Shown one piece after another: positions 4,128 through 27,718 of a stretch of 32,000 nucleotides of DNA (its first letter is position 1; each line of letters begins with the position of its first letter). The notes beneath the pieces were generated by a model that ran no database searches, was not told where the DNA came from, and was given only the letters and a program-made list of their open reading frames with translations. The DNA lies in the NCBI GenBank assembly GCA_031288595.1, contig JAITRB010000013.1, positions 26,425-58,424 on the forward strand, in the 5' to 3' direction. A program made the translations under genes and the position numbers. Source of the stretch: Puniceicoccales bacterium (GTDB taxonomy: Bacteria > Verrucomicrobiota > Verrucomicrobiia > Opitutales > JAIRLG01).

Positions 4128-4223
4128 GGGGCTGGCTTTGTCCGAAGGGCAAGGACAGCTGTCCTTGCCCTTCGGACGGCCCGCATCGCGGGCCCGATTT
4201 CTTTGAAATCGAAAGCCAGCCCC
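4128..4223. repeat. Structured intergenic element copy A (closing stem + 3 hairpins; order long-GC-short)
   Basis: Parse: ggggctggcttt | tccgaagggcaaggacag/ctgtccttgcccttcgga (perfect 18-nt arms) | ggcccgc-atc-gcgggcc | cgatttc-ttt-gaaatcg | aaagccagcccc. Read directly from the sequence. Confidence 0.9.
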
Positions 4224-4319
4224 AAATAACCCTTTCCCCCTCTCACGAAGATCGCCATTTACAAGAACACACTGGACAGACGCTGGGCATCCCTATACTC
4301 CACGAGAGCCGCGCAGCCT

Positions 4320-6035
4320 ATGGTTTCCGTCCTGCTCAGCATCCTCCTCTTCGAGGCATCTATTTTCATCCACGAACTGGGCCATTACCTAGCGGCCAGG
4401 CGGCAGGGGCTATTCATCCCGAGATTCTCCATCGGCTTCGGGCCCAAGCTCTTCTCTTGGAAATTTCGGGGAACGGAATTCTGCCTTTCGCTCCTGCCGC
4501 TGGGAGGCTATGTCGCCCTGCCCCAACTCGCTGAACTCGAGGCCCTTGAAGGCAGCTATGGCATCCCCGATACCTGCAAACAGCAGCTGAGTGCCTGGGA
4601 TAGGTGTTTTGTGGCACTGATGGGGCCGCTGTTCAACCTCCTTTTGGCGTTATTCGTGGCTTCGGTGTTATGGATCCACGGCACACCAGGCCTCCCCGAA
4701 GATTCTTCACGGGCTATTGGCTACATTCTCCCCCATCTTCCGACTCCTCTCGGCGACATCCCCAACCCCAATCTAGGGACAGGACTGCAATTGGGCGATG
4801 TCATTCTGTCCGTCGATGGGCAAGCGGTCTCCTGCTTCGAAGCCATCCAACAGGCCATCGGGATTGGTTCCGGGCACGATGATCAGGGACAGGCGACGGT
4901 GGACTTGGAAGTGCGACGTGGCGACGCGATTCTCCCGCTCACGCTCCATCCCGTCAAAATCTGCCCATTCGCTAGCCGCTCGGACAGTCTCCGCAGTCTC
5001 GGAATCGCCCCGACCTCTTCCCTGAAGATCACGGCCATCGTGCCGGACTCCCCTGCTGCCAAGGCCGGATTACAGAGAGGAGATCAGCTTCTGGCCGTCG
5101 ATGGGCAGACGCTCTACTCACTCCAACACCTGCAGGACTACATTCAGGGAGTGCCTTCGGACATTCAGCTCTCCGTGAGGCGACGAGGGGAAGAGATTTC
5201 CCTCCCCGCCGCGCTGACCGATGTTCCCATCAGCAAGGCCTACTGGAAGCTCGAAGATTCCCGGGGCGAAGAAATCTTCTGCCTCATCCCGCGTGACTCA
5301 TTTTCCTCGCTGAATTCAAAGGGAATCGAGGGCCGTTTCGAAATCGGGTTTTCGGCGGAGCAGCATTCTCCCTCTCCCCTGGCCGCCGGTGATGGACTCA
5401 TCCTACCGGCGAATTTGGCCGTTTTTTCCGACTTGGGCGAATGGCTATCCCGCGACAGGCCCTCTTCGCTCCGCTTTCAGAAATCCGATGGCAGTGTTTA
5501 TGAATACCCGCTGGGGAATTATAGATTCCAGAGTATAGCGGCGACGACGATTCGCCGGCTGGGCATCGAATGCGCGCCGGAAATGGTCTGGATCCACCTC
5601 TCGCCCTGGCAGCAGATCAGGAATTACGCGCTTCAGAGCGTCCAAACCCTGTGCAGCCTGCTCTCGCCGCACTCGGATGTGGCCCTGCGGCACTTGATGG
5701 GCCCCCCAGGCATTTTCAGGACGATGAAGACCCTCGCTGCCCACAGTCTCTGGACTCTGCTGGCCTTTTTCGTCATGCTCAACGTCAATCTCGCCATCAT
5801 CAATCTCCTGCCGCTGCCGGTGCTCGACGGTGGCCACCTCATCATGGCTGGACTGCAGAAGCTCTTGGGCAATGGCTTTCCCCTGCGGTGGTGGCAGCAC
5901 AGCCAGATCCTCTTCATCCTCTTTTTCCTGAGCCTCATGATCTATGCCAGTTTCCACGATCTCCGGCGCTGGAGGGATGACCGACGCGAGCCCTCGACCC
6001 TGAAATTTCAGGAGCAGATCAGGCTTCATTCTTAA
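4320..6035 (+). CDS. rseP: RIP site-2 zinc metalloprotease RseP (M50 family) with PDZ region
   Basis: 571-aa ORF with ATG start. N-terminal HELGHY zinc motif lies in a TM helix, PDZ-like segments follow (LQLGDVILSVDG, LQRGDQLLAVDG), and the C-terminal NLLPLPVLDGGH motif is present. Confidence 0.9.
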   Translation: MVSVLLSILLFEASIFIHELGHYLAARRQGLFIPRFSIGFGPKLFSWKFRGTEFCLSLLPLGGYVALPQLAELEALEGSYGIPDTCKQQLSAWDRCFVALMGPLFNLLLALFVASVLWIHGTPGLPEDSSRAIGYILPHLPTPLGDIPNPNLGTGLQLGDVILSVDGQAVSCFEAIQQAIGIGSGHDDQGQATVDLEVRRGDAILPLTLHPVKICPFASRSDSLRSLGIAPTSSLKITAIVPDSPAAKAGLQRGDQLLAVDGQTLYSLQHLQDYIQGVPSDIQLSVRRRGEEISLPAALTDVPISKAYWKLEDSRGEEIFCLIPRDSFSSLNSKGIEGRFEIGFSAEQHSPSPLAAGDGLILPANLAVFSDLGEWLSRDRPSSLRFQKSDGSVYEYPLGNYRFQSIAATTIRRLGIECAPEMVWIHLSPWQQIRNYALQSVQTLCSLLSPHSDVALRHLMGPPGIFRTMKTLAAHSLWTLLAFFVMLNVNLAIINLLPLPVLDGGHLIMAGLQKLLGNGFPLRWWQHSQILFILFFLSLMIYASFHDLRRWRDDRREPSTLKFQEQIRLHS

Positions 6036-6127
6036 GATAGCGATTAGCAAAGCAGGATTTTCGCCGATTTTGGCGAGGATCCCCTCACAACTTTGCTATT
6101 GACGGAAAGTGCAGGAATTATCTCTCC

Positions 6128-6156
6128 TTGACAATTTATAAAATTTATGCTAACTC
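6128..6156 (+). promoter_or_regulatory. Putative sigma70-like promoter upstream of deoA
   Basis: TTGACA (6128-6133), a 17-nt spacer, then TAACTC (6151-6156), about 45 nt upstream of the ATG at 6202. Pattern match only. Confidence 0.25.
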
Positions 6157-6201
6157 CTCGTCGGAGGGAATTCATGAGGTCGCTAGGAAAACTCAGTTTT
6201 C

Positions 6202-7539
6202 ATGGAATCGGAGAGCACTAAGGATCAGGCAGAAAACCTCGAGCACTCTTTTCATCTTCTCATAGAAAAGAAGCGGGACAACGAGGAGCTCAGTGAAGGA
6301 GAGATCCGCTATCTGGCCGAGTCCATCCTCAAGCAGCGCATTTCGGATACGCAGTTGGCTGCCCTCGTCATGGCCATTTACTTCCGCGGACTTTCTCTGC
6401 AGGAAACCTCCCTTTTCACGGAGGAGATGATGCTATCCGGAGAGATTTTCGCCCTGCCGAAAATCGCCCGTCCCAAGATCGATCGCTACGCGACCGGTGG
6501 AGTCGGGGACAAGACGGGACTGGTCCTCATCGTCCTAGCAGCTGCCTGTGGGATCGCCGTTCCCGCCATGCTGGGAGAAGAGGAGGGATTTATCATCAGC
6601 GATCTGGACAAGCTCAGCGCGATTCCAGGCATTTCGGTCGACCTCAAACCCGAGCGTTTCGCCAAGCAGGTACATGATATCGGCTGCGCGATCACGCGGC
6701 AGTTCCAGCAGATCACGCCGATTCATCACCTGCTCTTCCGCATCCGGCAGCAGACAGGCACCATCCCGAGCCTGTCCCTGACGACCTGCAGCCTGCTGAG
6801 CAAGAAATTTTCCGAAGGGGCTGAAGGCGTCGTCGTCGATGTCAAATGGGGCAATGGTTCCTATATTCGCGGCTTCGAAGAGGCGAAGCAGCTCGCCCGC
6901 TTGATCACCCGCGTTGCCAAGGGCATGAACCGGCGCTGCGTGGCGCTGGTCACGGACATGAATCAGCCGCTGGGTAATACCGTCGGTACCGGCCTGGAAA
7001 TCCAGGAAATTATCCGCATCCTGCACGGTGAAGTGGACTCCGAGAGCGACGAGCTGATACTGCGCCTCGGGATGGAAATGGTTCGGCTCGCCGGTGTTGC
7101 GGGCTCGACGCTTTCCGCCAAACAGATGATCAAACGCCACCTCTCCGACGGCACTGCCCTAGCCAAGTTCCGCGAAATGGTCGTGGCCCAGGGAGGGGAT
7201 GGAAGCTACATCGATAATCCGGACAAATTTCCCAAGGCTTCCCAGGTGCGTAGGTTATCGGCCATGAAGCGCGGCTATGTCCACACCATCGATGCGGGCC
7301 TGATCGCCCGTGGGGTTGATCTGCTCTCACGACGACCGGACAACAGTATCGACCACTCCGTCGGCATCTCCGAGATCAAGAAGGTCGGTGCTCAGATTAA
7401 GCAGGGCGAATCGCTTATGACGGTTCACTACAATGACGAGACCCATCTCGAAGCGGCATTGGAATACCTGCGCTCCGCCCATCGCCTAGCCCCCAAACGC
7501 CCTGCCGAAAATGACCTCATCGCCGAACGAGTGGCGTAG
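6202..7539 (+). CDS. deoA: Thymidine / pyrimidine-nucleoside phosphorylase
   Basis: 445-aa ORF with ATG start. N-terminal helical domain (ISDTQLAALVMAIYFRGLSLQE), phosphate-binding TGGVGDKT, and typical length and C-terminal domain. Confidence 0.9.
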   Translation: MESESTKDQAENLEHSFHLLIEKKRDNEELSEGEIRYLAESILKQRISDTQLAALVMAIYFRGLSLQETSLFTEEMMLSGEIFALPKIARPKIDRYATGGVGDKTGLVLIVLAAACGIAVPAMLGEEEGFIISDLDKLSAIPGISVDLKPERFAKQVHDIGCAITRQFQQITPIHHLLFRIRQQTGTIPSLSLTTCSLLSKKFSEGAEGVVVDVKWGNGSYIRGFEEAKQLARLITRVAKGMNRRCVALVTDMNQPLGNTVGTGLEIQEIIRILHGEVDSESDELILRLGMEMVRLAGVAGSTLSAKQMIKRHLSDGTALAKFREMVVAQGGDGSYIDNPDKFPKASQVRRLSAMKRGYVHTIDAGLIARGVDLLSRRPDNSIDHSVGISEIKKVGAQIKQGESLMTVHYNDETHLEAALEYLRSAHRLAPKRPAENDLIAERVA

Positions 7540-7790
7540 CGAAAACGCATATCTTTCCTCTCTTTGATTTTCTTAAAGAGCATCGATGATGCCGGGCTAT
7601 TCCAAAAATGCCAGCGCAAGTAAGTCTATGCGGAGGTATATCTGCGCGCTTCTCGTAATGGGATGCCCAGTGTGCGTTTTTTTTGAAGCCTCCTTTTCTT
7701 TCTCCGTTTAAATCCTTTTTGCTTTCCTCAGAGCAAGTTCCACCAGAGCGTGGGTCAGCCGCAGGTTGGAGCCGAGGCTTGGTTTCGGTC

Positions 7791-7877
7791 TCCGCCGTCT
7801 TTGCAAGCCACAAACCGCAGGTTTGTGGCTTGATGCCCGCAGAGCGGGCGATTCCTTCGGAATCCAAAGACGGCGAA
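7791..7877. repeat. Structured intergenic element copy D (order long-GC-short)
   Basis: Parse: cgccgtcttt | caagccacaaac-cgcag-gtttgtggcttg | gcccgc-aga-gcgggc | gattcc-ttc-ggaatc | aaagacggcg. Confidence 0.9.
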
Positions 7878-7982
7878 CAGAACAGAGCCAGCAGAGCTAA
7901 AATACCTTGCAGATAGGCCTATACCTCATTCCGCGGACAGTTGATCAAAAATTCATCCCTCAATCTGGAAGCATGCACCACG

Positions 7983-9290
7983 TTAAAGAAGTTTTTGCCC
8001 CATCGTTTCCCAAATCGCGACAGCCGCATTTTTTGCTCCATCCGAAGATTTCATGCACTCCCTCAGTGCCATCGCCGATTCCTTGCACCGCGTGTCGGAC
8101 AGAATCCTGAGAACCGACCTCTGGATATTCTTCGCCCTCCATTGGCCGAGTGGGATGCGTATGCCGGCGCCGCGCGATTCCATATTCGACAGGTTGATGA
8201 ATTGCTCCTGCTGGGCAGCAACACCGACAATCGGGCAGCCGGAATAAAGGGCCGTTTGCAAAGTGCCCTGTCCCCCGTGACTTATCGTGACATCGGCCAT
8301 CGCGTTTATTTTCAACGCAGGAACGAACTTGGCGGTGATATGGATGCCCTGGCGCCTCCCTAACAGCTCTTTTGCTCTTTCAACTGGAAAGTGAGGAGAA
8401 AGTATCACAGCATTCCAATCTAGCCCAGGGCCGTATGTAAAAACACCGATGACCTCCTTAAGCATCTCTTCAGAACCGGAGCTGCTCAATGTACAGAAAA
8501 TCCTGGGCCTGCCGGATTTGGGATCAAAAACTTCCATGATCTCTAGATCTATCGGCACCTCGTCATCGGGAACGGAAAACAATGGCCCGGTAAATTGCAC
8601 GCTCGGAGGAAACTTATCCGCGTCGTAATAGCACGCCAGGTCATTCACGACCATCAGGTCGGACTTCAGCAAGTCGAATACATTGATCAATTTTTCTCCC
8701 TGCCATCCCAGATCATAGGCGGCTCGTCTGATGTTGTTCTGCCTCAGTATCGGCACTCTATTCCTGATGAAATCCGGAATGTGGTGGAACAGCCACAGGC
8801 GCAGAGGCTTTGGAAATATCGAGAATAGCTTCAACTGTTCCGGCACATCCGGAAGGACTTTGCAAAAATCGGGAACCAAGGGCAGCGGAACGAAACAAAC
8901 CCCCGGGATTTCTTTTTTCATCATTCTCCTGACCAGGCCCGCTATCGGCCAGAAACCGTGCATGACGATGTCCGGCTTTATTTCGCCATAGGCCGCGATT
9001 TCGCCCTGAATCATTTCCCTGGCCAATTCTTCGGAGGCGATAAGATCGGTCGTCGTCATGCCCAAATCCTGGTAAAGGCCAATACCCGACAATTTCGGTT
9101 CGGCGTGATATATCTCGAATCCAAGATCCAGAACCATCCGTTCGAATCTGCTCCCGTGGGATAGGAATATTATCCTGGGCACCCTATCGTCCGGTCGGTA
9201 GTTTTTCAACGCCTTGGCTATTTCGATGGCTCTAGCCGCATCGCCCGCATCTTGAAAGGCCGTGCTGATCACTATGGTTATCCCTTTCAT
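7983..9290 (-). CDS. GT1-family UDP-glycosyltransferase (MGT/OleD/CrtX-like)
   Basis: The ORF track starts at a TTG (9299); the first ATG is at 9290 (MKGITIV...). C-terminal nucleotide-sugar motif HGGQGTLQTALYSGCPIVGVAAQQEQ. Spot counts of three 60-nt lines give ~47-53% G+C versus ~57% in a deoA line. Confidence 0.8.
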   Translation of the reverse strand: MKGITIVISTAFQDAGDAARAIEIAKALKNYRPDDRVPRIIFLSHGSRFERMVLDLGFEIYHAEPKLSGIGLYQDLGMTTTDLIASEELAREMIQGEIAAYGEIKPDIVMHGFWPIAGLVRRMMKKEIPGVCFVPLPLVPDFCKVLPDVPEQLKLFSIFPKPLRLWLFHHIPDFIRNRVPILRQNNIRRAAYDLGWQGEKLINVFDLLKSDLMVVNDLACYYDADKFPPSVQFTGPLFSVPDDEVPIDLEIMEVFDPKSGRPRIFCTLSSSGSEEMLKEVIGVFTYGPGLDWNAVILSPHFPVERAKELLGRRQGIHITAKFVPALKINAMADVTISHGGQGTLQTALYSGCPIVGVAAQQEQFINLSNMESRGAGIRIPLGQWRAKNIQRSVLRILSDTRCKESAMALRECMKSSDGAKNAAVAIWETMGQKLL

Positions 9291-9460
9291 ATAAAACAAT
9301 CCTTATTCCTACCTTACCCTATGCCTTAGAAGAGGATATTTTATAATTTCCCTTTTGAAATCTTTTTTGGGGGAAGATTTCCCTCAAAAAGCCACGAAAA
9401 AGGCTGCCAGCTCTCTCTTCTTCCTTTTCCAGGACGCAGCAGATCTGCATCATCGTCCCG

Positions 9461-9507
9461 CCCCCAAATGTCCAGCCGAAAATGACCTCATCGTCGAGCG
9501 AGTGGCC
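9461..9507 (+). pseudogene. Displaced remnant copy of the deoA 3' end
   Basis: 41/47 nt are identical to 7490-7536. It translates to PKCPAENDLIVERVA versus deoA PKRPAENDLIAERVA, with no stop at the homologous position. Weaker similarity extends ~12 nt further upstream. Confidence 0.65.
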
Positions 9508-9538
9508 GTTTACCGTCTCCGTTCGTCCGGCGGGCTTC

Positions 9539-9632
9539 CGCCTTTGAGCCCTTCGGGCTCCCGCCCGCTATGCGGGCTGCGATGAGGAAAAATGAAAGCT
9601 TCCGCTTTGCATTTTTCCTCATCGCAAAGGCG
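9539..9632. repeat. Structured intergenic element copy H (order short-GC-long)
   Basis: Parse: cgccttt | gagccc-ttc-gggctc | gcccgc-tat-gcgggc | gcgatgaggaaaaatg-(aaagc-ttcc-gcttt-g)-catttttcctcatcgc | aaaggcg. Confidence 0.85.
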
Positions 9633-9728
9633 TCAAACCCCAATTCCGAGATCACGCCAAATCAGGGACACAGTCACAACACCAGACTGAAAATTTATTC
9701 GTAAATATCGAACAGCATCTCCCCTCCT

Positions 9729-9802
9729 TGGCTGCCCGACCAGGATTCGAACCTAGACAAACTGAACCAAAATCAGTTGTGCTACCATTACACCATCGGG
9801 CA
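9729..9802 (-). tRNA. tRNA-Gln (anticodon TTG)
   Basis: Reverse complement: TGCCCGA TG GTGT AATGGTA GCAC A ACTGA TTTTGGT TCAGT TTGT CTAGG TTCGAAT CCTGG TCGGGCA G CCA. It shows a 7-bp acceptor stem with U1:A72, T-loop TTCGAAT, an anticodon loop with TTG at positions 34-36, and an encoded CCA. Length 74 nt. Confidence 0.9.
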
Positions 9803-9907
9803 AGCGAAAGCGCACCTTCCGAGAGCTAAGCCACAAGATGGAATTTCACCGGAGATTAGGGAGCAGCACCGAAGGAAGTCTTAGCCACATGGCAAGCTGA
9901 AAGCGAC

Positions 9908-10465
9908 TCAAATGCTCAGCAATTCCTTTTCCTTTTTGGCCAGTAAGTCATCGATCGCCGCGATGGCCTGATCGGTCTGCTTCTGAATCTCCTTTTCTAT
10001 CCGGCTGAGTTCATCCTCGGACATAGGCCCCACTTTCTTCGCCTGCTTTACGGAACTCATGAACTCCTGTCGTACCGCGCGCACGCCCACACGTCCCTCT
10101 TCGGCCATTCCGTGGGCCACCTTGATCAGCTCCTTGCGCCGGTCGCCGCTCATCTCGGGCACGAGGCAGCGGATCAGCAGTCCCGTCGTCACAGGCGACA
10201 GGCCGATATTCGCCAGAAGAATCGCCTTTTCGATCGGTGGAACCATGCCGCGATCCCAGGGCTGGATCTGAATCGTACGGGCATCCGGAACCGTGATTGT
10301 GGCGATTTCCTTGAGTTTCAAGCGATTTCCATAGCCCTCAACCGCGAGATTTTCGACCATGGCCGACGTTGCCTTGCCGGTGTGCAGCGAACGGAACTCG
10401 CTGGCCGTATGCTCCACCGCCTGCTGCATCTTCTTCTGGGAAGATTCTAAAAGATCACTGCCCAC
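9908..10465 (-). CDS. frr: Ribosome recycling factor
   Basis: 185 aa with GTG start. Collinear with E. coli RRF (185 aa), including ...MQQAVEHTASEFRSLHTGKATSAMVENL... and ...EMSGDRRKELIKVA.... Confidence 0.95.
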   Translation of the reverse strand: MGSDLLESSQKKMQQAVEHTASEFRSLHTGKATSAMVENLAVEGYGNRLKLKEIATITVPDARTIQIQPWDRGMVPPIEKAILLANIGLSPVTTGLLIRCLVPEMSGDRRKELIKVAHGMAEEGRVGVRAVRQEFMSSVKQAKKVGPMSEDELSRIEKEIQKQTDQAIAAIDDLLAKKEKELLSI

Positions 10466-10483
10466 AGTCAGTTGTACCGAAAG

Positions 10484-11200: not shown

Positions 11201-11490
11201 ATGCCTGAGCTAAGTATTGTAGGTGGCCGGAATCCAGCGTCAACTCCGAGTTTTCTTAGCTGGCAGATTTGTAAAAAAACGATCCCAAGCTCCTAGGGAC
11301 AGGCAAGGCACTGGAGGATATTTCCACTGCGGATTTTGAGGAAGATCCGTATTGGCCAGAAGTTGCCTGACACCAGCCCTATGTCCCGCTGGAGGCGGAG
11401 GCTCTGGAGCAGCGCCGCCAGCAGCTATCGGCTCTCTGAGGCCTGGAGAATTGGGAAAATCCGCCCAGGCCTGGAGTGTGAGGAGCCCGT

Positions 11491-11587
11491 CTTCGCTGGC
11501 TTTCCAGGGCCCAAATGATAGAAAATCATTTGGGCCCTGGGGCCCGCTGCGCGGGCCCGATTTCTCCGAAATCGAAAGCCGGCGAAG
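11491..11587. repeat. Structured intergenic element copy C (order long-GC-short)
   Basis: Parse: cttcgctggcttt | ccagggcccaaatgat-agaaa-atcatttgggccctgg | ggcccgc-tgc-gcgggcc | cgatttc-tcc-gaaatcg | aaagccggcgaag. The closing stem is 13 bp with one G.T pair. Confidence 0.9.
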
Positions 11588-11866
11588 AAAAACACTTTTC
11601 GCCGCAGAAAGGTTCCATCGGGCTATGCACGATCACAATGGGCTCTTTGCCTCCCCAGCGTTCCCTTTCCCCATACTTCCTCCCACATAACAGGGGCATC
11701 GCCCTCCGGCCCCGTCGAGCCGAACAGGGGAGTTTTCACATACGGTTGCGCATGTGCAGGAGAAGCTCATCCTATTCCCCATCATAAATCTGAAAACCCA
11801 CCTGGCGATGCGGAGAAGAGATTTAGGCAAAAGACCTGGCACTGAGGAATTCCCTCCAGAAGACTC

Positions 11867-17141: not shown

Positions 17142-17234
17142 CGACTGTCTTTGGCTCCCTTCGGGAGCGCCCGCACAGCGGGCCCCAATGGAGGGAATAA
17201 AAGAATTTTATTCCCTCCATTGCAAAGACAGTCG
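17142..17234. repeat. Structured intergenic element copy E (order short-GC-long)
   Basis: Parse: cgactgtcttt | gctccc-ttc-gggagc | gcccgc-aca-gcgggc | caatggagggaataaaa-gaa-ttttattccctccattg | aaagacagtcg. Confidence 0.9.
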
Positions 17235-18960: not shown

Positions 18961-19056
18961 GGGGGCTGGCTTTCGATTTCGAAGAAATCGGGCCCGCGAC
19001 GCGGGCTTTCCGAAGGGAAAGGATATTGTCCTTTCCCTTCGGACAAAGCCAGCCCC
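18961..19056. repeat. Structured intergenic element copy B (order short-GC-long; near-identical inverted copy of A)
   Basis: Parse: ggggctggcttt | cgatttc-gaa-gaaatcg | ggcccgc-gac-gcgggc | tccgaagggaaagga-tattg-tcctttcccttcgga | c aaagccagcccc. Confidence 0.9.
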
Positions 19057-20215: not shown

Positions 20216-20261
20216 AGCGGAAGTGAAGTGTGGCTGAGCGGAGGAGCCTCGGGAGATCCAT

Positions 20262-20346
20262 CCCGCTGTCCTGGATTCCGAAGGAATCGCCCACTCCGTG
20301 GGCAGCGGCCTAAAAATGAGAATTTTTAGGCCACCAGGACAGCGGG
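20262..20346. repeat. Structured intergenic element copy F (order short-GC-long)
   Basis: Parse: cccgctgtcctgg | attcc-gaa-ggaat | gcccac-tcc-gtgggc | ggcctaaaaat-gaga-atttttaggcc | ccaggacagcggg. The clamp carries a paired change relative to GCCCGC/GCGGGC. The short hairpin is the exact reverse complement of that in copy D. Confidence 0.9.
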
Positions 20347-20370
20347 CGCCGAAGGGGGCATATTTGCCTA

Positions 20371-20399: not shown

Positions 20400-20419
20400 A
20401 GTTAAAACTCATCGCTCTT

Positions 20420-21469
20420 ATGAATTCTCATATCCAGCATTTCATCCAGCGAGACTCCCACAAGCTCGTCGAACACCGCTGCAAAACGATTCCTTCGGAA
20501 GCCCTGACGCTTCCGGGGGAGGATTTCATCGACCGTGTCTGGGTACATTCCGACCGCTCCTGCAACGTCCTGAACAACCTGGCCCGCCTTTACGGCAGTG
20601 GACGTCTGGCTCATACGGGCTATGTTTCCATCCTGCCGGTAGATCAGGGGACCGAGCATTCCGCTGGAGCGAGCTTTGCGCCTAATCCAGACTACTTCGA
20701 TCCGGAGAACATCGTGCGCCTCGCTCTGGAGGGTGGGTGCAATGCGGTCGCCTCTACCCTGGGTGTCCTGGGCATCGTGAGCCGGAAATACGCCCATAAA
20801 ATTCCCTTCATCGTGAAGCTGAATCACAACGAGCTATTGAGCTATCCCAATAAGTTCGACCAGGTTTATTTCGCTCAGGTGGAACAGGCCAAGGACATGG
20901 GGGCGCTCGGCATCGGGGCCACCATTTATTTCGGCTCGGGAGAGTCTACGCGCCAAATTCAGGAAACCAGCGAGGCCTTTCAGCTCGCCCATGAGCTTGG
21001 CCTCGTCACGATCCTCTGGTGTTACCTCCGCAATCCAGCCTTCAAGGCGGACAAGGACTATCACATGGCGGCGGATCTGACCGGTCAGGCGAATCATCTC
21101 GGAGCGACGATTCAAGCGGACATTTTGAAGCAGAAGCTGCCGATCAACAACGGAGGATTCAAAGCGCTCAAGTTTGGGAAGACGCACGAAAAGGTCTACA
21201 GCCAGCTCTCCTCGGAGCATCCCATCGACCTGACCCGCTACCAGGTGGCCAACGGCTACATGGGGCGCACGGGATTGATCAGTTCCGGCGGAGCAGCGGG
21301 AGAAAATGATTTTCACGAGGCCATCGAAACGGCCATTATCAACAAGCGGGCAGGAGGTATGGGCCTCATCTGCGGCCGCAAGGCCTTTCAGCGACCCATG
21401 AAAGAGGGCATCGAGCTCCTCCACACCATCCAGGACGTCTATCTGGAGAAGACCATCACCCTGGCCTGA
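20420..21469 (+). CDS. fbaB: Class I fructose-bisphosphate aldolase (DhnA/FbaB type)
   Basis: 349 aa, collinear with E. coli FbaB as I recall it: [72 protein letters not shown]. Confidence 0.93.
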
Positions 21470-21502
21470 GCCTTTCATAGGGAAAGGCCCTTTGAGAGAA
21501 CG

Positions 21503-21531
21503 CCCTGGAGTCCTTCCAGGGTTTTGTTTTT
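21503..21531 (+). terminator. Rho-independent terminator downstream of fbaB
   Basis: ccctgga-gtcct-tccaggg followed by ttttgttttt. It is preceded by a second hairpin gcctttc-atagg-gaaaggc at 21470-21488. Confidence 0.7.
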
Positions 21532-21613
21532 CCTCAAAGCGCATCGCAGAGGATAAATGGCTGAGGCCGGGGCCTCTTGCAGAGGATCCTGAGGAGGACC
21601 GTTGTGGGGCTTG

Positions 21614-21715
21614 GGGCCACCTTTAACGGTGCGGAAAATAAAAAGGTTTTTTTATTTTCCTGCGCCGCAGGCCCGCGCAGCGGGCCGGGAACCCGAAGGG
21701 CTCCAAAGGTGGCCC
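21614..21715. repeat. Structured intergenic element copy G (order long-GC-short)
   Basis: Parse: gggccaccttt | (cggtgc)ggaaaataaaaa-ggtt-tttttattttcc(tgcgccg) | ggcccgc-gca-gcgggcc | ggaaccc-gaa-gggctcc (one mismatch) | aaaggtggccc. Confidence 0.85.
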
Positions 21716-21882
21716 TGCCGCGACCCCAGCCCCTCTCTTTAGCGCTGAGAACCCAAGTCTCCTGGGCCCATCCCCGTTCCGGGAGCTTCTTTCCCTCCTC
21801 AAACTTTCCAGCCAAAGCCAACGAAGCTCGGCAGCCAATCCAGAACTCACGTTCCTCTAAAACCGGATTATAATTCTCCGCC

Positions 21883-22257
21883 ATGTGCAATTGTGACAGC
21901 TGGACGAGCCGGAGCATTTTCATCCTGGAGCTCAGCATCGCCCTGATTTCCACCGTCACCAGCCTAATGCTCTTGGCGCAAAGCCGACGTCGCGCACGGC
22001 AGAGGGCGGCGTCAAGCGCAGGGAGCCCGAAAGCTCCCTCCTGCTTCGAAAAACTTCTAACCCTCTTGCCGGAAAAGGTTCTGGGCTATGGGAAGCAAGT
22101 TTTTCAAAAACTCGTGGAATTTCTTCGCCCCATGCTCTCCCGGGTCACTTCGTCGCTGCTGGGCTCCATCCGCAAGATCGCCAATTCCCTCCTCCAAGCA
22201 ACAGAAAGATCCGGAAGGTCCTCCCCAAAACAGGTGTCCCCAGAAAAGGGCAAATAG
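21883..22257 (+). CDS. Hypothetical small protein (possible first gene of phage block)
   Basis: 124-aa ORF with ATG start, a hydrophobic N-terminal segment (IFILELSIALISTVTSLMLL) and a basic tail. It ends 14 nt before the next ORF. No recognisable family. Confidence 0.4.
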   Translation: MCNCDSWTSRSIFILELSIALISTVTSLMLLAQSRRRARQRAASSAGSPKAPSCFEKLLTLLPEKVLGYGKQVFQKLVEFLRPMLSRVTSSLLGSIRKIANSLLQATERSGRSSPKQVSPEKGK

Positions 22258-22624: not shown

Positions 22625-22629
22625 AGCCT

Positions 22630-24018
22630 ATGCTCACCCGACGACATCCATTCTTTCTCCCCTATCAAGAACGCTGGATCCGCGACGAATCCCAACTGAA
22701 AATCCTGGAGAAATCCCGGCAAATCGGGATGACCTGGGCCACGGCCTACCGGCTCGTCCGTCGGCACGCCGACCGCCGGCAGCGGCTCGATTCCTGGGTC
22801 AGCTCCCGGGACGAGATTTCGGCCAAGCTCTTTCTCGAGGACTGCAAATCCTTTCGGGATATCCTGCACGCGGCGGCACAGGAGTTCGGCCGTACTCTCT
22901 GCACCGATGAGGGACGAGACAGCAGCTATTCTCTCCGCTTCCGCAACCGCACGCAGATTCACTCGCTCTCCTCGAATCCCGACACCCAAGCTGGCAAGCG
23001 CGGCACGCGCGTTCTCGACGAGTTCGCCCTGCATCCGCAGGCGGAGCAACTCTACAGCACCGCCATCCCGGGTATCACCTGGGGAGGGCAGCTCGAAATT
23101 CTCTCGACCCATCGGGATGCCGAGCATCTCTTCAACCGCCTGATCCAGGAGGTCCTCCACAACGGCAATCCCAAGCAATTTTCCCACCACCGGGTCACGC
23201 TCGAAGATGCCCTGGAACAGGGGCTTCTGCCGCGCATTCAGGAAAAGCTTCCCGCCGAAGATCCGCGGCGGGCGATGACGGAGGCGGATTACTACGAGCA
23301 CATCCGGCAGAGCTGTATCGACGAGGATTCCTTTCGGCAGGAGTACCTCTGCTGTCCCTTCCAGGAGGGCAATTCCTTTCTCCCGCTCCCGCTGATTCAG
23401 GACTGCGAGTACGCCGATGGCGAAACCTGGGAGTGCGGTCCGTCGGCCATCACGCAGGACTGCTACCTCGGCATCGACATCGGTCGGGAACACGACCTCA
23501 GCGTCTTCTGGCTCCTGGAGAAGGAAAAGGACATCGCCTATACGCGCCAAATCATCTGTGCGCAGCGGATGCGCTTTTCGGAGCAGGAAGTGCTCCTGAA
23601 ATCCTTCTTCGCCCTACCCTCGCTGCGCCGCGTCTGCATCGATCAGAGCGGCATCGGGCGCCAGTTTACCGAACGCGCCATCGAACATTTCGGCTCCTAC
23701 CGCGTCGAAGGCATCACCTTCAGCTCCGCCATCAAGGAACGGCTCGCCTACGAACTGCGCCGGGCATTCGAGCAGCGGCAGTTGAGAATTCCGGCCGAGC
23801 GCAGCATTCGGGCAGACCTGCGCTCCATCAAACGGGAAAATACCTTCGCCGGCAATGCTCGCTTCTCAGCCGAACGGAATAAAAACGGTCATGCCGACCG
23901 CTTCTGGGCGCTGGCCCTGGCCTGGCACGCCGGACAGAGTCCCAGGACCGCCTCATTTTCCCACTTCACCTCCATTCCCTGGCACCAGTCCCACCATTCC
24001 TGGAGGGGAAGCCTTTAA
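22630..24018 (+). CDS. Phage terminase large subunit (Mu gp28-like)
   Basis: 462 aa. The N-terminus FLPYQERWIRDESQLKILEKSRQIGMTWA carries the Walker-A-like KSRQIG.T of this terminase family. An acidic nuclease-type C-terminal half follows, and the portal gene lies immediately downstream. Confidence 0.8.
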   Translation: MLTRRHPFFLPYQERWIRDESQLKILEKSRQIGMTWATAYRLVRRHADRRQRLDSWVSSRDEISAKLFLEDCKSFRDILHAAAQEFGRTLCTDEGRDSSYSLRFRNRTQIHSLSSNPDTQAGKRGTRVLDEFALHPQAEQLYSTAIPGITWGGQLEILSTHRDAEHLFNRLIQEVLHNGNPKQFSHHRVTLEDALEQGLLPRIQEKLPAEDPRRAMTEADYYEHIRQSCIDEDSFRQEYLCCPFQEGNSFLPLPLIQDCEYADGETWECGPSAITQDCYLGIDIGREHDLSVFWLLEKEKDIAYTRQIICAQRMRFSEQEVLLKSFFALPSLRRVCIDQSGIGRQFTERAIEHFGSYRVEGITFSSAIKERLAYELRRAFEQRQLRIPAERSIRADLRSIKRENTFAGNARFSAERNKNGHADRFWALALAWHAGQSPRTASFSHFTSIPWHQSHHSWRGSL

Positions 24019-24022
24019 GCCT

Positions 24023-25228
24023 ATGAAATATTCCTCGCAAATTTCCGACGGCCGCATCGCGCATTCCCTGCGCCTGCAGTTCAATCCCATTCGGCAGCTG
24101 AATCCCGAGACCCTGTCGCACATCCTCGACAGTTTTTCCTCGGGATACTTGAAACCGGCAGCCCTCGCCTGGGAAGCCATCGAGCGGCGAGACGACATCC
24201 TCCAGGGCGTCGCCGCCAAGCGCAAGAAATCCGTCGCGCGCCTCCCCTGGGAAATCCTGAGCATCGACCGTTCGCCCGAGGCGATGAAGCAGAAGGAGGC
24301 CCTGGAATATTTTTACAACAACCTTCGGGCGACCCATGCCTGTGACCGCAACATCTGCGGCGGCTTCGCCCTGCTGGTCAAGCAGATGATGGACGCTGTC
24401 GGGAAGAAATACGCCGTCCACGAGATCGTCTACCAGGAACCGATGAAAAATGCCTCCGGAGACTTTCTCCTCTCCGCCGAATTCCGCTTCGTCCCGCTGT
24501 GGTTTTTCGAAAACCGCCACGGGCACCTGCAGTTTTTGGAACAGGAAGGCTCCCTGGAAGGTATCGCGCTGGATCCCGGCTCCTGGATGGTGACGCACGG
24601 GGATGGATTGATGGAGGCCTGTTCCATCGCCTACCTCTTCAAACATCTCCCTCTGCGCGATTGGCTCGTCTACTGCGAGCGCAATGGCATGCCGGGGGTC
24701 AAAGGAGTCACCAGTGCCCAACCCGGAAGCGAGGAGTGGGAGAGCGCCAAGTCCGCCGTCGAGTCCTTCGGTGCCGAATTCAATGCCCTGATGACGGTGG
24801 GGACACAGATCGAGGCCATCGACTTAAGCAGCCGCGGAGAACTGCCCTATCCTCCTCTGGTCGACCGCATGGATCGGGCGATGGCAGCTCTGTGGCGTGG
24901 CTCCGACCTCACAACCCTGTCCCGCAATGCCGGGACCGGCGCTTCCCTCCAGGGCGATGAATGTATCCTGCTGGAGGAGGACGACGCCTGTACGATTTCC
25001 GAGACGCTCAACCAACAGGTCGATGTCCCTGTGCTGCGCTACCTCTTCGGCGAAGGGCCGGTCAAGGCCTATGTCCGGCTCATGCCCAAGACCCGTCGGG
25101 ATCTACAAGCGGAAATCCGCCTCTACCGCGAGCTCTACGAGATGGGGATCTCCTTTTCCGCGGAAAAAATGCGTGAACACTTCGGTATCCCCATTCCCGG
25201 CGAAGACGAAATCACCCTGAAAAAATAG
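24023..25228 (+). CDS. Phage portal protein (DUF935 / Mu gp29-like)
   Basis: The ATG at 24023 is in frame with track ORF 23855..25228 and 5 nt after the terminase stop. The region LDSFSSGYLKPAALAWEAIERRDDILQGVAAKRKKSVARLPWEI matches the conserved N-terminal pattern of DUF935 portals as I recall it. Confidence 0.75.
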   Translation: MKYSSQISDGRIAHSLRLQFNPIRQLNPETLSHILDSFSSGYLKPAALAWEAIERRDDILQGVAAKRKKSVARLPWEILSIDRSPEAMKQKEALEYFYNNLRATHACDRNICGGFALLVKQMMDAVGKKYAVHEIVYQEPMKNASGDFLLSAEFRFVPLWFFENRHGHLQFLEQEGSLEGIALDPGSWMVTHGDGLMEACSIAYLFKHLPLRDWLVYCERNGMPGVKGVTSAQPGSEEWESAKSAVESFGAEFNALMTVGTQIEAIDLSSRGELPYPPLVDRMDRAMAALWRGSDLTTLSRNAGTGASLQGDECILLEEDDACTISETLNQQVDVPVLRYLFGEGPVKAYVRLMPKTRRDLQAEIRLYRELYEMGISFSAEKMREHFGIPIPGEDEITLKK

Positions 25229-25253
25229 GAGGCGAACACCCGATAAATTCCTC

Positions 25254-26156
25254 ATGGATAAGGTTTTACAGGAAATCCCGTGGCCCGAGGAGACTCCGAC
25301 CGGTTCGGCAATCAGGCGCTGGCTCCGAATCAGTGCCTATGGTCATTACCCCCATCCGCAGGGCTTACAGTGCATCGACCGTGTCGCAGTCCAGGCGATG
25401 GTGGAGCACTTCAAATCTTTTCGCGGACGTCTGCGGCGCCGCTTCGGCGGCCTTCCGGTCTACATCGGCCATCCGGATGACCCGCAGCTCCGCCAACAGC
25501 CCGGGCATCAGGATACCCGCGCCTACGCATGGATTCAGGATCTGGAGGCTCGGGAGGACGGACTGCACGGGCTCATCAAATGGTCGGACGCCGGCCTGGA
25601 GCTCCTCCGCAATGCCTTTTTCAAGTTTTTCTCCCCGCGTTGGGAGATGCAGGTCATCGGGCCAGGGCAGTTTCGACCCATTCGCCTCCTGTCCATCGGC
25701 CTCACCAATTACCCCAACATCCCGGGCGATGCGATCGCCAACCAGGAAGTGAGCGAGGGAAAAGCACCGGCGGCCGTCACCCGAGAAGAGGCTTATGGAA
25801 CATCCCCCGGCCATCCGGTTCCCGCCGATGACACGCTTAGGAAAGAGACAGGGATTTCCGCAGAACTCGAACATTTTCTGGCTCAGGGCCTGAACGGAGG
25901 ACATATCCTCCCCAACGAATGCGCCGCATGGGCCCGCCGCTACGGCGAGGATCCGGAAAGGGCCAGCGAGGAGATGCAGGCCCAGAAGCACGGACTCCAT
26001 CTTCAGGCTCACAGCGCTTCGCTCCAGGAGGCCAATCCATCGGCCGCCTCCCGGGAACAAATCCTCTCCCACGTTCATCGGCGCATCCGGGACTTCGGCG
26101 AGAGCTACACCGATGCCTGGGCCGCCGTGCGCCAGTCCTATCCCCAGCTCTTTTGA
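25254..26156 (+). CDS. Phage head protease/scaffold (Mu gpI-like)
   Basis: 300 aa, positioned between portal and capsid. The N-terminal region (ISAYGHYPHPQG...PVYIGHPD) and the C-terminal tail (SYTDAWAAVRQSYPQLF) resemble Mu-like prophage protein I. Confidence 0.6.
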   Translation: MDKVLQEIPWPEETPTGSAIRRWLRISAYGHYPHPQGLQCIDRVAVQAMVEHFKSFRGRLRRRFGGLPVYIGHPDDPQLRQQPGHQDTRAYAWIQDLEAREDGLHGLIKWSDAGLELLRNAFFKFFSPRWEMQVIGPGQFRPIRLLSIGLTNYPNIPGDAIANQEVSEGKAPAAVTREEAYGTSPGHPVPADDTLRKETGISAELEHFLAQGLNGGHILPNECAAWARRYGEDPERASEEMQAQKHGLHLQAHSASLQEANPSAASREQILSHVHRRIRDFGESYTDAWAAVRQSYPQLF

Positions 26157-26185
26157 AAAAGGCTTTTTATCCCATCATCACGACA

Positions 26186-26608
26186 ATGAAATCCATACCT
26201 ATCCTCTTCTCCAACATCGCCGGCGAGACCCATCGCTCGCACATCACCTACCGGGCCGGCGAGGCCATCACACGCCATCGCCTCGTCAAGCTCTCCCCGG
26301 ACGGAACGGCGGTCAGCGTCGCCGGAATCGGTGATCGGCCCATCGGCCTATCCACCGACGAAGCCGCTCCGGGCGAGATGCTCGACATCGCATTGCTCGG
26401 TTCCTCCGACACCCTCACGGCCCAGGCCAGCGGCAGCATCCAAGCCGGAGACATCCTGGTGCCAGCCACCGAGGGCCATGTCCAAGCCCTGCCTGCCACC
26501 ACTGGCAGCTACAGGCAAATCGGCATCGCGCTGCGACCGGCCGTCGCTGATGCCCTGGTCGAGATCATGCCCTGCGTTCCTTGTCCGTACACGGTCGATG
26601 GCAACTAA
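26186..26608 (+). CDS. Head decoration-type protein (DUF2190-like)
   Basis: The ATG at 26186 in track ORF 25919..26608 gives 140 aa. The Gly/Ala-rich beta pattern (VAGIGDRPIGLSTDEAAPGEMLDIALLG...IQAGDILV) and the position just before the capsid gene fit this family. Confidence 0.55.
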   Translation: MKSIPILFSNIAGETHRSHITYRAGEAITRHRLVKLSPDGTAVSVAGIGDRPIGLSTDEAAPGEMLDIALLGSSDTLTAQASGSIQAGDILVPATEGHVQALPATTGSYRQIGIALRPAVADALVEIMPCVPCPYTVDGN

Positions 26609-26628
26609 CCCTTTTAACATCCTATCCC

Positions 26629-27600
26629 ATGATGAATCTCTACGAAAGACTTCCCCGGGACGACGGGCTTCAGGACTACGGCACCATCTGCGCGGCCAAT
26701 GAATCGCGCTTCAACGCGAGTCACTACTCGGAACTCCTCAGCACCTTCACCGCAGGCTGGAGAGATCCCGAGCACCTGGCCGAGCTGCTGGACTTCATCG
26801 CGCCTCCGATTCCCGTCGCCCGACGATTCGAGTTCAAGGTCGCCGACAATGGAGAGGCCTTTCTCTCCGAATCCGACGACATTCGGGCCATCGGTTCTGC
26901 CTTCAAGCGCATCGAATTCAGCGGCAGTTCCGTCACAGCCAAGACCTTCAACAAGGGCCTGACGATCCGGGTCGACCACGACGATGTCGCCGGTGACAAC
27001 TGGCGGGAGCGCTATGTCCAACTCCTATTACAGCGGCTCTACCGGAATGAATTGCGTCGGGCTATCGCGGCCCTGGAAGGCAGTGCCTCTTTCCTCAGCG
27101 CGAGCTACGTCTGGAGCCCCACGACAGGAACACCGAATCCCGACGCCGACATCCGGGCCGAACTGGCTGCGGCCGCCGAGCTTACAGGCATTCGGCCGAA
27201 TCGGCTCATCATCGGCGAAGGGGCCTGGGACCTGCGCTCGGATGCCTACGACCACCAGGACAACGCCGGCTCGCAGCGCTCGGCCGGACTCAGCCCCACC
27301 GAACTCGCCCAGAAGCTCTTCGTCGACGAGGTGAGGCTTATCCGGGCGCGCTACCAAGGCAGTGCGAGCAAAGATGCCATGCTCGGCAATACGATCTATG
27401 CCTTCCAGTCCCAGAACGGAATTCTCAAGGACGAGTCCTCCAATATAAAGCGCTTCGTCACACCGGTGGACGGCCACAGTTCCTTCCGGGTCTATCTGGA
27501 GGAGCACAGCAAGTTCAGCGACATCAGCGTCGAGCACTACAGCCATATCCTGATCACCTTCAACCAGGGCATCCGCAAGCTCAGCGTCATCGCCGCCTAG
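26629..27600 (+). CDS. Phage major capsid protein
   Basis: The ATGATG at 26629 in track ORF 26581..27600 gives 323 aa. Size and position (after protease and decoration genes) fit a capsid protein, and a large structured non-coding gap follows. The family is not resolved. Confidence 0.65.
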   Translation: MMNLYERLPRDDGLQDYGTICAANESRFNASHYSELLSTFTAGWRDPEHLAELLDFIAPPIPVARRFEFKVADNGEAFLSESDDIRAIGSAFKRIEFSGSSVTAKTFNKGLTIRVDHDDVAGDNWRERYVQLLLQRLYRNELRRAIAALEGSASFLSASYVWSPTTGTPNPDADIRAELAAAAELTGIRPNRLIIGEGAWDLRSDAYDHQDNAGSQRSAGLSPTELAQKLFVDEVRLIRARYQGSASKDAMLGNTIYAFQSQNGILKDESSNIKRFVTPVDGHSSFRVYLEEHSKFSDISVEHYSHILITFNQGIRKLSVIAA

Positions 27601-27621
27601 GGCTCGCTTGGCCTCCGGTCA

Positions 27622-27718
27622 CTGCCATGGCCCCCTTTGCTCCGCAAAGGGCGGCGTTCCTCCGGAACGCCGCGGTCGGCCCCCTCGGTTCCACCGAGGG
27701 GCCGACGGGCCATGGCAG
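27622..27718. repeat. Structured element copy I (divergent; inside prophage, after capsid gene)
   Basis: Parse: ctgccatggcc(c) | cctttgc-tcc-gcaaagg | ggcgttcc-tcc-ggaacgcc | gtcggcccctcgg-ttccac-ccgaggggccgac | gggccatggcag. The topology matches copies A-H but it has no GCCCGC clamp. Confidence 0.75.

Follow-up and report, generated by a model that had tools for sequence, protein, structure and literature searches.

Closed four-way-junction palindromic elements in the intergenic spacers of uncultured Puniceicoccales

Most of what is known about interspersed palindromic repeats, among them repetitive extragenic palindromes (REPs) with their BIME and REPIN arrangements and miniature inverted-repeat transposable elements (MITEs), comes from Proteobacteria, and it is still debated what they do and how they spread. 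MITEs carry fixed terminal inverted repeats and are bordered by direct target duplications, such as TA in the case of Correia elements. Enterobacterial REPs and Correia elements act as stem-loops at the RNA level. The RIMEs and Sm-repeats of rhizobia are clade-specific intergenic mosaics of about 100 nt with several palindromes. Integron attC sites are variable in sequence and defined by structure; they measure 60-140 nt and act as folded single strands, in which the inner ends of the stem are conserved and the centre is variable and can branch. Structured MITEs have been reviewed (PMC3184786). A REP is a single imperfect hairpin of 20-40 nt with an unpaired GTAG or CGTC tag (PMC3733652), and cruciform formation and HU-linked roles have been proposed for REPs (PMC3733652, PMC4550694). 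Here we analyse a 32,000-nt stretch of a Puniceicoccales bacterium (contig JAITRB010000013.1, positions 26,425 to 58,424; hereafter the window), in which nine intergenic loci, c1 to c9, fold into a closing stem around three hairpins. Two inverted REPs make up a REPIN, which forms a single long hairpin, whereas these elements form a closed four-helix junction of 80-110 nt and are untagged. Protein searches placed the window in Puniceicoccales (Verrucomicrobiota), the best FBA match being 93% identical and the PpiD-like protein having a match of 100% identity on a 58.4-kb MAG contig (locus tag LBT57_02750). We tentatively read the elements as a lineage-specific superfamily of non-coding interspersed palindromic repeats with the form of four-way-junction DNA, which spread or were homogenised in the past and have been retained under selection on pairing.

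The first-pass annotation of the window had proposed that the nine loci are copies of one family. All nine do adopt the common fold. With RNA parameters, their minimum free energies (MFEs) range from -57 to -82 kcal/mol, and each MFE fold consists of a closing stem around three hairpins with almost no junction bases between the helices. Under DNA parameters these structures remain the MFE folds and also represent the centroid, with z-scores of -7.2 to -12.8 against dinucleotide shuffles (200 per locus), none of which folded as well as the locus itself. To compare sequences, we built a covariance model of the core (the end of the closing stem plus hairpins 1 and 2) from 49 distinct cores of the window and related DNA, with copies aligned as short hairpin, clamp and long arm. 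In the window, this model recovered exactly eight copies, c1 to c8, at 39-54 bits; these are matches by construction for seven of them, which were in the training set, while c7 was represented there only by its orthologue in the related locus L001. The only further matches above 25 bits in the window were the reverse-strand echoes of these eight. The core is shared by c1 to c8, all of which match the model, while c9 has the same topology, no model match and a sequence identity of 44-54% to the other copies, equal to background, and belongs to another sequence subfamily. The earlier proposal of a multi-copy family of structured elements in both orientations is thereby supported, and the motif counts noted earlier are correct. 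The CTTT/AAAG junction is present in seven of the nine loci, six of the eight core copies have TTC or GAA loops, and the core copies are split 4:4 between the two orientations. The G+C clamp GCCCGC-N3-GCGGGC is found in seven copies (0.36 expected in the window; 0 of 100 shuffles reached the observed number), and in c7 it is replaced by the compensated pair GCCCAC/GTGGGC. The proposed long-arm range of 11-18 bp is generally correct, except for c3, where the arm reaches 22 bp and a conserved 5' extension is found at ~9512-9538.

Taken over all related DNA, the unit consists of four helices that meet with zero to three unpaired bases, resulting in a near-perfect four-way junction on one strand. 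In the closing stem of 7-18 bp, the inner part, ...CTTT(G)/(C)AAAG..., is common to the copies, whereas the outer part is specific to each copy yet complementary. Hairpin 1 has 6-7 bp and a 3-nt loop, hairpin 2 is the clamp, and hairpin 3 is 11-22 bp long, free in sequence and often AT-rich at its tip. A seeded folding scan recovered 93 clean units, and the model matches that it missed were complete units with a few mismatches, apart from two exceptions. Loops of 3 nt account for 205 of 273, the commonest being TTC, TGC, TAC, TCC and GAA. When closed multiloops with clean hairpins were counted over about 335 kb of DNA from the clade, 80 contained three hairpins, three contained two and none contained four. 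Because of this split, we consider three hairpins to be a defining feature.

At least five sequence subfamilies, A to E, have this topology in common without a common sequence. Subfamily A, represented by c3 and by the A-like c8, consists of ..GCCGCCTTT, GAGCCC-TTC-GGGCTC, the clamp and a conserved arm GCGGTAAGGAAAAATGAAAGC-TCCC-GCTTTGCATTTTTCCTTACCGC. Subfamily B (c2, c5 and c7) has ..GCTGTCTTTG, a variable hairpin 1, the clamp and a variable arm, and subfamily C (c1 and c6, with c4 being C-like) has GGGGCTGGCTTT, CGATT(T/C)C.., the clamp and a purine-rich arm. Subfamily D, with three short hairpins, has no copy in the window, and subfamily E (c9) comprises ..GGCC(C), CTTTGC-N3-GCAAAG, a further hairpin and a G+C-rich arm; D and E share the architecture of the others and not their sequence. 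In an alignment of 32 A-type copies, the sequence CACCGTCTCC-N9-CCGGCGG is conserved as an extension at the 5' end. Its CCGGCGG part could compete for the 5' strand of the closing stem through GGCGG/CCGCC pairing, giving two mutually exclusive folds. In many copies, purines predominate on the 5' side of the long arm, where (G)GAAA(A)ATG(A/G) is often present and is matched by the complement CATTTTCC on the 3' side, even though the arms concerned have otherwise different sequences (for example at 9586-9596 and 20312-20320 of the window, and at L043:3929, L070:425 and L078:942). This recurring motif could be a remnant of common ancestry, or it could be constrained, for instance by contact with a protein or by the need for an AT-rich tip. 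Paired elements of different subfamilies (B+D, A+A, B+A) also occur, 15-120 nt apart, at L067 919-1218 and 3404-3662, L099 3067-3267, L078 807-1039 and L052 3663-3896. In L067 the same B+D pair flanks both sides of an open reading frame (ORF) of 746 amino acids without a Pfam match. Such pairs are BIME-like clustering or segmental duplication.

The pairing of these helices is conserved while their sequences change. In the core alignment, 98.3% of the cells are paired, a percentage inflated by the ascertainment of most copies through folding or a sequence pattern. Both-sided changes occur in 13 of the 14 core pairs, the observed covariation was reached in 0 of 500 shuffles, and core pairing falls to 48-49% when the partner is slid by one column. 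The outer part of the closing stem, which lay outside the ascertainment (only at least 5 bp were required), also covaries, so that covariation extends to all helices: a copy's own closing stem averages 11.6-13.3 bp, against 2.6-7.1 bp when it is combined with the 3' strand of another copy. Compensatory changes were also found between orthologues, which provide the cleanest evidence of constraint. Between c5 and its orthologue in L121 (90% identity), one pair of the closing stem shows a compensated A-T to G-C change and the loops differ; c6 and its orthologue in L120 (88% identity) show a compensated A-T to G-C change in the long arm; c8 shows the same kind of change in the closing stem relative to L001 and L120; and c9 differs from L001:7821-7920 by a compensated T-A to C-G change in the closing stem and by a third arm that has been remodelled. 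The c8 orthologue of L002 and L003 has GCCGGC/GCCGGC as its clamp and a wholly different long arm, still perfectly paired. The remaining differences between orthologues are mostly in the 3-nt loops. Some copies are more conserved than the flanking coding DNA. The orthologues of c7 in L001 and L120 are 98% identical to it, while the adjacent FBA gene is 87-88% identical, and c2 differs from L107:2077, from the metagenome-assembled genome (MAG) Pcl387_bin136, by about five bases, mostly in loops, in the same orientation and beside a gene with 79% identity.

Elements are also retained at the same sites. Between different MAGs whose genes are 68-79% identical, an element was found in both at 7 of 11 orthologous spacers. 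Orientation was the same in all nine deep comparisons (these seven plus c7 and c8 against L002 and L003), which has a probability of about 0.002 if orientations are random and the comparisons independent. For c8, orthologues were found in L001, L120, L002 and L003, all in the same orientation. This retention is accompanied by turnover. In one spacer, Pcl387_bin136 and Pcl387_bin38 have a B-type element and Ct408_bin121 an A-type element. Presence and absence also differ between relatives: c3 is absent from the orthologous spacer of L107, c6 from the short orthologous spacers of L002 and L003, and c5 from L003, where an IS200-type tnpA pseudogene is found instead, while L120 has an additional D-type copy. 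Finally, Ct408_bin121 contains about 20 A-type copies that are nearly identical over ~105-125 nt. The simplest reading of these patterns is long retention in place under selection, combined with occasional spread or replacement by copy-and-paste or gene conversion.

To determine how widespread the elements are, we scanned 185,579 species genomes for the degenerate pattern CTTT-N16-19-GCCCGCNNNGCGGGC-N24-54-AAAG. Among the matches listed (L005-L084), all loci with multiple matches came from three Puniceicoccales MAGs (Pcl387_bin136, Pcl387_bin38 and Ct408_bin121), and other taxa had mostly single matches. The covariance model identified 86 matches of at least 39 bits in 303 kb of loci from Puniceicoccales and relatives, versus none of at least 30 bits in 552 kb from other taxa containing the raw pattern, including other Verrucomicrobiota, Lentisphaerae and Kiritimatiellae. 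The 44 raw pattern matches in IMG/VR (416 kb of contigs) included none that the model confirmed, a blastn search with the A-type consensus found no match in 72,556 plasmids (PLSDB), and a metagenome scan with the PpiD-like protein yielded one distant 1.7-kb contig only. As the first-pass annotation had suspected, the elements match no known Rfam family: Rfam 15 gave nothing at the gathering threshold over the whole window, and at E<=1 over positions 4000-22000 only the tRNA and a sub-threshold sX5 match inside rho. Literature searches found no verrucomicrobial or cloverleaf-type repeat of this kind. The elements are thus restricted, within this sample, to a small clade of uncultured Puniceicoccales. 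Within it they are dense. The window has 8 copies in 32 kb, or one per 4 kb; five loci that were fetched by protein and are unbiased for the element have 10 copies in 56 kb; and loci selected by pattern have about one additional copy per 6 kb, with the seeding copy left out. In the three other Puniceicoccales MAGs and the metagenome relatives, the elements recur about once per 3-6 kb.

Several independent observations point to action at the level of DNA. Selected RNA helices usually tolerate many more G:U pairs, and selected RNA hairpins usually have tetraloops. In the elements we counted 3835 Watson-Crick pairs versus 65 G:T pairs (1.7%); with so few wobble pairs, the ability to fold is maintained on both strands. 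Based on crude ORF calls, the 49 copies that we classified comprise 10 between divergent genes, 10 between convergent genes, 14 in tandem sense and 15 in tandem antisense contexts. G:T pairs showed no bias toward the mRNA strand (16 versus 24 in 37 tandem contexts). From this foldability of both strands, and from a position and orientation that are indifferent to transcription, we infer that the working form is folded DNA rather than a part of the mRNA. The asymmetric arm tip of the A-type copies adds a further observation. It has two mirror forms relative to the rest of the unit, occurring as a flip form, ATGAAAGC-TCCC-GCTTTGCAT, in 23 copies, as a flop form, ATGCAAAGC-loop-GCTTTCAT with loops GGGA, GTGA, AGAA or AAAA, in six, and is symmetric in one; reverse-complementing the flip tip gives exactly the tip of L105:2662. 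Such mirror forms are what inversion, or copying templated by a hairpin, leaves behind in a DNA palindrome.

A canonical intrinsic terminator is present on the plus strand of the window at 21502-21530, where a hairpin at 21502-21522, GCCCTGGAG-TCC-TTCCAGGGT, is followed by the T-tract TTTGTTTTT. It begins 33 nt past the fba stop codon, and c8 lies ~90 nt further downstream, a position that likewise points to the DNA level. The fba genes of L002 and L003 are likewise trailed by a hairpin with a T-tract, from which we conclude that this lineage uses ordinary terminators. The elements themselves were rejected as intrinsic terminators, in line with the earlier annotation, on the grounds that no T-tract follows the units, that they occur in divergent contexts and both orientations, and that c8 is found behind a real terminator. 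They were also rejected as tRNA or tmRNA: ARAGORN and Rfam identify only tRNA-Gln at 9729-9802, and the loops of the elements are of 3 nt.

On the reading that we favour, supercoiled duplex would extrude the fold, or else it would arise where DNA is transiently single-stranded. The folded DNA may then be the ligand of a structure-specific protein, which could be a transposase or recombinase recognising hairpins or junctions, or a junction-binding nucleoid protein such as HU. Copy-and-paste or gene conversion would have spread or homogenised the copies, accounting for the A-type ones that are nearly identical. The copies would afterwards be held in place by purifying selection on pairing, aided by hairpin-templated correction. 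The termini are inverted repeats of which the inner 5-9 bp are shared and the outer 4-8 bp are copy-specific yet complementary. In the rho/ppiD spacer of L003, at the site of c5 in closer relatives, positions 3840-4290 contain a degraded IS200-type (Y1/HUH) tnpA pseudogene (MRHEIQAGSTYDMKYHIICCTKYRYKV..., with stops), which indicates that Y1 transposases were once present in the clade. The ORFs beside the densest clusters encode a XerC/D-like recombinase, ArgRS, ComM, a type II secretion system (T2SS) ATPase, FabH, PheS, glycogen phosphorylase and NusB, as well as a UvrD-like helicase and ankyrin and RRM proteins. The latter two, a multi-ankyrin-repeat protein and an RRM-domain protein at L108 122-1036 and 1497-2231 (Pcl387_bin38), have eukaryote-like domains that hint at a host-associated or intracellular lifestyle.

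Several results weigh against this reading. A tblastn search with E. coli RayT over the window and the related loci, including ~335 kb of Puniceicoccales DNA, gave nothing credible (best E 0.028, in an unrelated taxon), and a Pfam scan of 20 ORFs beside the dense clusters of L052, L099, L067 and L108 revealed housekeeping genes and no transposase. There were no direct target duplications in the 25-nt flanks of 93 copies and no clean pair of filled and empty sites, the sole candidate, the extra D-type copy of L120, having flanks that are too diverged. Selfish repeats do not usually stay at orthologous sites for so long or exceed coding DNA in conservation, a pattern that fits a host function. 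Of the two strands, the short-GC-long strand has 65 G:T pairs and its complement 31, which is unexpected for pure cruciform extrusion. One of the strands may be the preferred one, as it is for transposases working on single-stranded DNA. The fold works in either strand and so in either transcript too, which is compatible with an RNA role. To these points should be added the inflated pairing percentages mentioned above and the nature of the DNA examined, which consists of MAG fragments and includes no complete genome.

Co-transcribed cis elements acting as RNA would be one alternative, for instance as protectors of 3' ends, RNase III sites, terminators or attenuators independent of a U-tract, or insulators between transcription units. 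Many copies in tandem contexts are indeed located 10-150 nt past a stop codon, c9 directly follows a major head gene at a site typical of a stabilising or attenuating hairpin, and a fold that forms either way round would permit a role independent of orientation; about 80% of E. coli REPs are transcribed (PMC4550694). We nevertheless consider such a role unlikely, given that ~20% of the classified copies lie between divergent genes without orientation bias, that c8 sits behind a terminator and no T-tract follows the units, that the rare G:U-type pairs do not favour the mRNA strand, that 3-nt loops dominate, and that the flip/flop tips reflect a DNA event. Independent small RNA (sRNA) genes of cloverleaf-like shape, each with its own promoter and intrinsic polarity, would account for the topology, the strong covariation and the orientation kept between genomes, as well as for a 65:31 wobble bias that tracks the element and not the neighbouring gene. 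Conversely, alignments of 32 copies show no conserved promoter- or terminator-like flank, Rfam and tRNA similarity are absent, pairing is almost purely Watson-Crick, and the loops vary freely between orthologues, so that single-stranded bases conserved for recognition are lacking. At a density of one copy per 3-6 kb there would moreover have to be hundreds of sRNA genes, and we regard this explanation as very improbable.

Other alternatives accept the DNA level and differ in what maintains the copies. The elements might be structural DNA sites domesticated by the host, acting as cruciforms that absorb or block supercoiling between transcription units or as HU-type nucleoid anchoring points, with selection at the host level only and without remaining mobility. 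This explanation, which we judge rather unlikely, overlaps with the palindromic-repeat reading, the main difference being whether copies still spread. It agrees with the foldability of both strands, with position and orientation being kept at 68-79% gene identity, with conservation above adjacent genes and with placement between transcription units, such as the FBA terminator and the next cluster; the REP325/HU/cruciform system offers a precedent (PMC4550694). The dispersed, near-identical A-type copies and the presence or absence of c3, c5, c6 and the D-type copy of L120, on the other hand, are signs of recent gain or turnover. Different subfamilies are also found in the same orthologous spacer, and the strand bias of G:T pairs is left unexplained. 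At the other extreme, the elements could be neutral, decaying MITEs without function or selection, whose perfect stems result from template-switch 'quasipalindrome correction' alone. Hairpin-templated correction is an established mutational process that would yield compensated pairs and flip/flop tips, and an ankyrin-repeat protein gives the genomes a host-associated look; selfish repeats often build up under such conditions. Yet correction at most slows divergence; it can neither give 98% identity next to coding DNA with 87-88%, nor hold the core of hairpins 1 and 2 across MAGs, nor hold elements at 7 of 11 orthologous spacers. This is the least probable of the explanations that we considered. 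A bolder proposal, and a doubtful one, is that the elements are not selfish repeats at all and instead form a host-maintained 'punctuation mark', defined by its fold, between most transcription units, either as four-way-junction DNA or as bidirectionally readable RNA. Place and orientation would then be fixed across genera, with compensatory evolution as the sequence turns over. The function of such a mark could be that of a cruciform-forming topological barrier or a nucleoid anchoring site, and if the proposal were true, non-coding genomic elements would gain a functional class not known before, one whose members are recognised by their fold and not by their sequence.

Having weighed these explanations, we turn to the individual copies and their surroundings. 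All copies in the window are intergenic, and the earlier impression that they fill nearly every longer spacer was borne out: between 3.5 and 22 kb, eight of the nine spacers over 200 nt are occupied, the sole empty one being 14416-14816. Element c1 (4128..4223, minus strand; subfamily C; DNA-parameter z -12.6; model score 49.9 bits) lies between the divergent genes for GspE and RseP. On the minus strand it reads short-GC-long, with the closing stem GGGGCTGGCTTT/AAAGCCAGCCCC, the hairpin CGATTTC-AAA-GAAATCG, the clamp GGCCCGC-GAT-GCGGGCC and a purine-rich arm of 17 bp, and it is a paralogue of c6, with 90% identity. Element c2 (7791..7877, minus strand; subfamily B; z -10.8; 54.5 bits), in the spacer between the thymidine phosphorylase and glycosyltransferase genes, is composed of the closing stem GCCGTCTTTG/CAAAGACGGC, the hairpin GATTCC-GAA-GGAATC, the clamp GCCCGC-TCT-GCGGGC and an arm of 13 bp. 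The spacer between the glycosyltransferase gene and tRNA-Gln contains c3 (9512..9638, plus strand, with its core at 9539-9632; subfamily A; z -9.7; 51.1 bits), which lies downstream of tRNA-Gln (9729-9802). Its core consists of CGCCTTT, GAGCCC-TTC-GGGCTC, GCCCGC-TAT-GCGGGC and the 22-bp arm, ..GGAAAAATGAAAGC-TTCC-GCTTTGCATTTTTCC.., which has the flip form. The 5' extension of c3, ACCGTCTCC-N-CCGGCGGG, is conserved in the family and is able to base-pair with the closing stem on its 5' strand. Over 125 nt, c3 is 88-89% identical to the A-type copies L075:4004-4129 and L060:5478-5603. Inside the 666-nt spacer upstream of pyrH is c4 (11490..11588, minus strand; C-like; z -11.2; 49.4 bits), with the closing stem TCTTCGCCGGCTTTC/GAAAGCCAGCGAAGA, the hairpin GATTTC-GGA-GAAATC, the clamp GGGCCCGC-GCA-GCGGGCCC and a 15-bp arm, CAGGGCCCAAATGAT....

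The next three copies are on the plus strand. Element c5 (17142..17234; subfamily B; z -12.8; 51.6 bits), between the divergent rho and ppiD-like genes, has the closing stem GACTGTCTTTG/CAAAGACAGTC, the hairpin GCTCCC-TTC-GGGAGC, the clamp GCCCGC-ACA-GCGGGC and an arm of 17 bp with an AT-rich tip. It is followed by c6 (18961..19056; subfamily C; z -10.7; 51.8 bits) in the spacer between ppiD-like and rnhC, and by c7 (20262..20346; a subfamily B variant; z -10.5; 39.3 bits) between rnhC and fba, where the closing stem CCCGCTGTCCTG/CAGGACAGCGGG and the hairpin GATTCC-GAA-GGAATC are joined by the compensated clamp GCCCAC-TCC-GTGGGC and an 11-bp arm, GGCCTAAAAAT.... In the spacer between fba and the next cluster, c8 (21612..21717, minus strand; A-like; z -7.2; 48.4 bits) has the closing stem GGGCCACCTTT/AAAGGTGGCCC, a somewhat degenerate hairpin 1, the clamp GGCCCGC-TGC-GCGGGCC and an arm of 18 bp whose tip is A/T-rich. 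Finally, c9 (27622..27718, plus strand; subfamily E; z -11.3; no model match) is found directly 3' of the major head gene of a phage-like cluster, and copies related to it occur among housekeeping genes in L099 and L108. It comprises the closing stem CTGCCATGGCCC/GGGCCATGGCAG, the hairpins CCTTTGC-TCC-GCAAAGG and GCGGCGTTCC-TCC-GGAACGCCGC, and a GC-rich arm of 14 bp.

Mechanically predicted ORFs of 110-220 amino acids cross c2, c4, c8 and c9 (7517-7867, 11352-11690, 21534-21959 and 27627-28301, respectively). Gene callers could turn such ORFs into hypothetical proteins or wrong start codons, and the covariance model allows annotators to remove spurious ORFs from Puniceicoccales MAGs. The gene after the major head gene probably starts 3' of c9, as in L001. 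Two further features of the window were observed. The rho gene at 14817-16958 (minus strand) encodes 713 amino acids, of which the Rho core begins at about residue 305, leaving an N-terminal extension of ~300 amino acids. After fba, a phage-like head and packaging cluster at 22630-31200 contains genes for a large terminase, a Mu-type portal, a protease, a scaffold, the major head protein and more structural proteins. Its order is kept in at least five relatives (L001, L002, L003, L004 and L120), whose FBA is 87-93% identical, which suggests a conserved, possibly domesticated element similar to a gene transfer agent (GTA), rather than a recent prophage.

Compared with known repeats, the elements resemble REPs, BIMEs and REPINs in being high-copy, extragenic, G+C-rich palindromes that occur in both orientations, are specific to a clade and form several subfamilies per genome, as well as in their mosaic clustering, vertical inheritance and long persistence. 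Membership in the GTAG/CGTC REPs was rejected on anatomy: no GTAG tag was found in the elements, and CGTC occurs only within the paired closing stem of c2-type copies. The genomic locations differ too. REPs are found mostly between convergent and unidirectional genes (PMC3733652), while 10 of the 49 classified copies here lie between divergent genes and 29 in tandem contexts. REP-RAYT systems include a gene for RAYT, a Y1 HUH transposase that the repeats typically flank; no credible RAYT match was found in the window and the related loci, among them ~335 kb of Puniceicoccales DNA. For a role at the DNA level, REP325 with HU and cruciform bridging in E. coli is the nearest functional precedent (PMC4550694).

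The likeness to MITEs, including the Correia/NEMIS elements of Neisseria, ERIC/IRU, the RPE of Rickettsia and the pneumococcal BOX, lies in the length of about 100 nt, the pairing inverted termini, the intergenic location in either orientation, the modular build (as in BOX) and the strong predicted folds. Unlike in MITEs, flanking direct repeats are absent. The outer closing stem varies between copies yet is complementary, no parent insertion sequence was seen in the 20 ORFs scanned beside dense clusters, and there is no similarity in Rfam. The rhizobial RIMEs provide a lead; they belong to another phylum, have no known sequence relation to the elements and are not known as closed four-way junctions. 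Integron attC sites have one orientation, extrahelical bases and a place in cassette arrays beside intI, whereas the elements occur in both orientations with near-perfect pairing next to housekeeping genes such as frr, pyrH, rho and fba. An attC identity was rejected on the basis of these orientations, the core housekeeping neighbours and 98% pairing. The inverted terminal repeats (ITRs) of parvoviruses such as adeno-associated virus (AAV) are similar in having a closing stem around small palindromes with 3-nt tips and a flip and flop of an asymmetric palindrome. However, ITRs are the three-way, T-shaped ends of linear replicons, while the elements are internal and four-way, so that the analogy is one of mechanism and not of homology.

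In kind, the elements are best read as belonging with the interspersed palindromic repeats of the REP, BIME, RIME and MITE type. What is new is a very regular closed four-way junction that is common to subfamilies unrelated in sequence, in a barely studied verrucomicrobial lineage. Orthologous copies that keep their place, direction and perfect pairing as their sequence changes, at ~70-80% gene identity, are rarely available for repeats, and they make the choices between selfish and host function, and between the DNA and the RNA level, directly testable in a new system.

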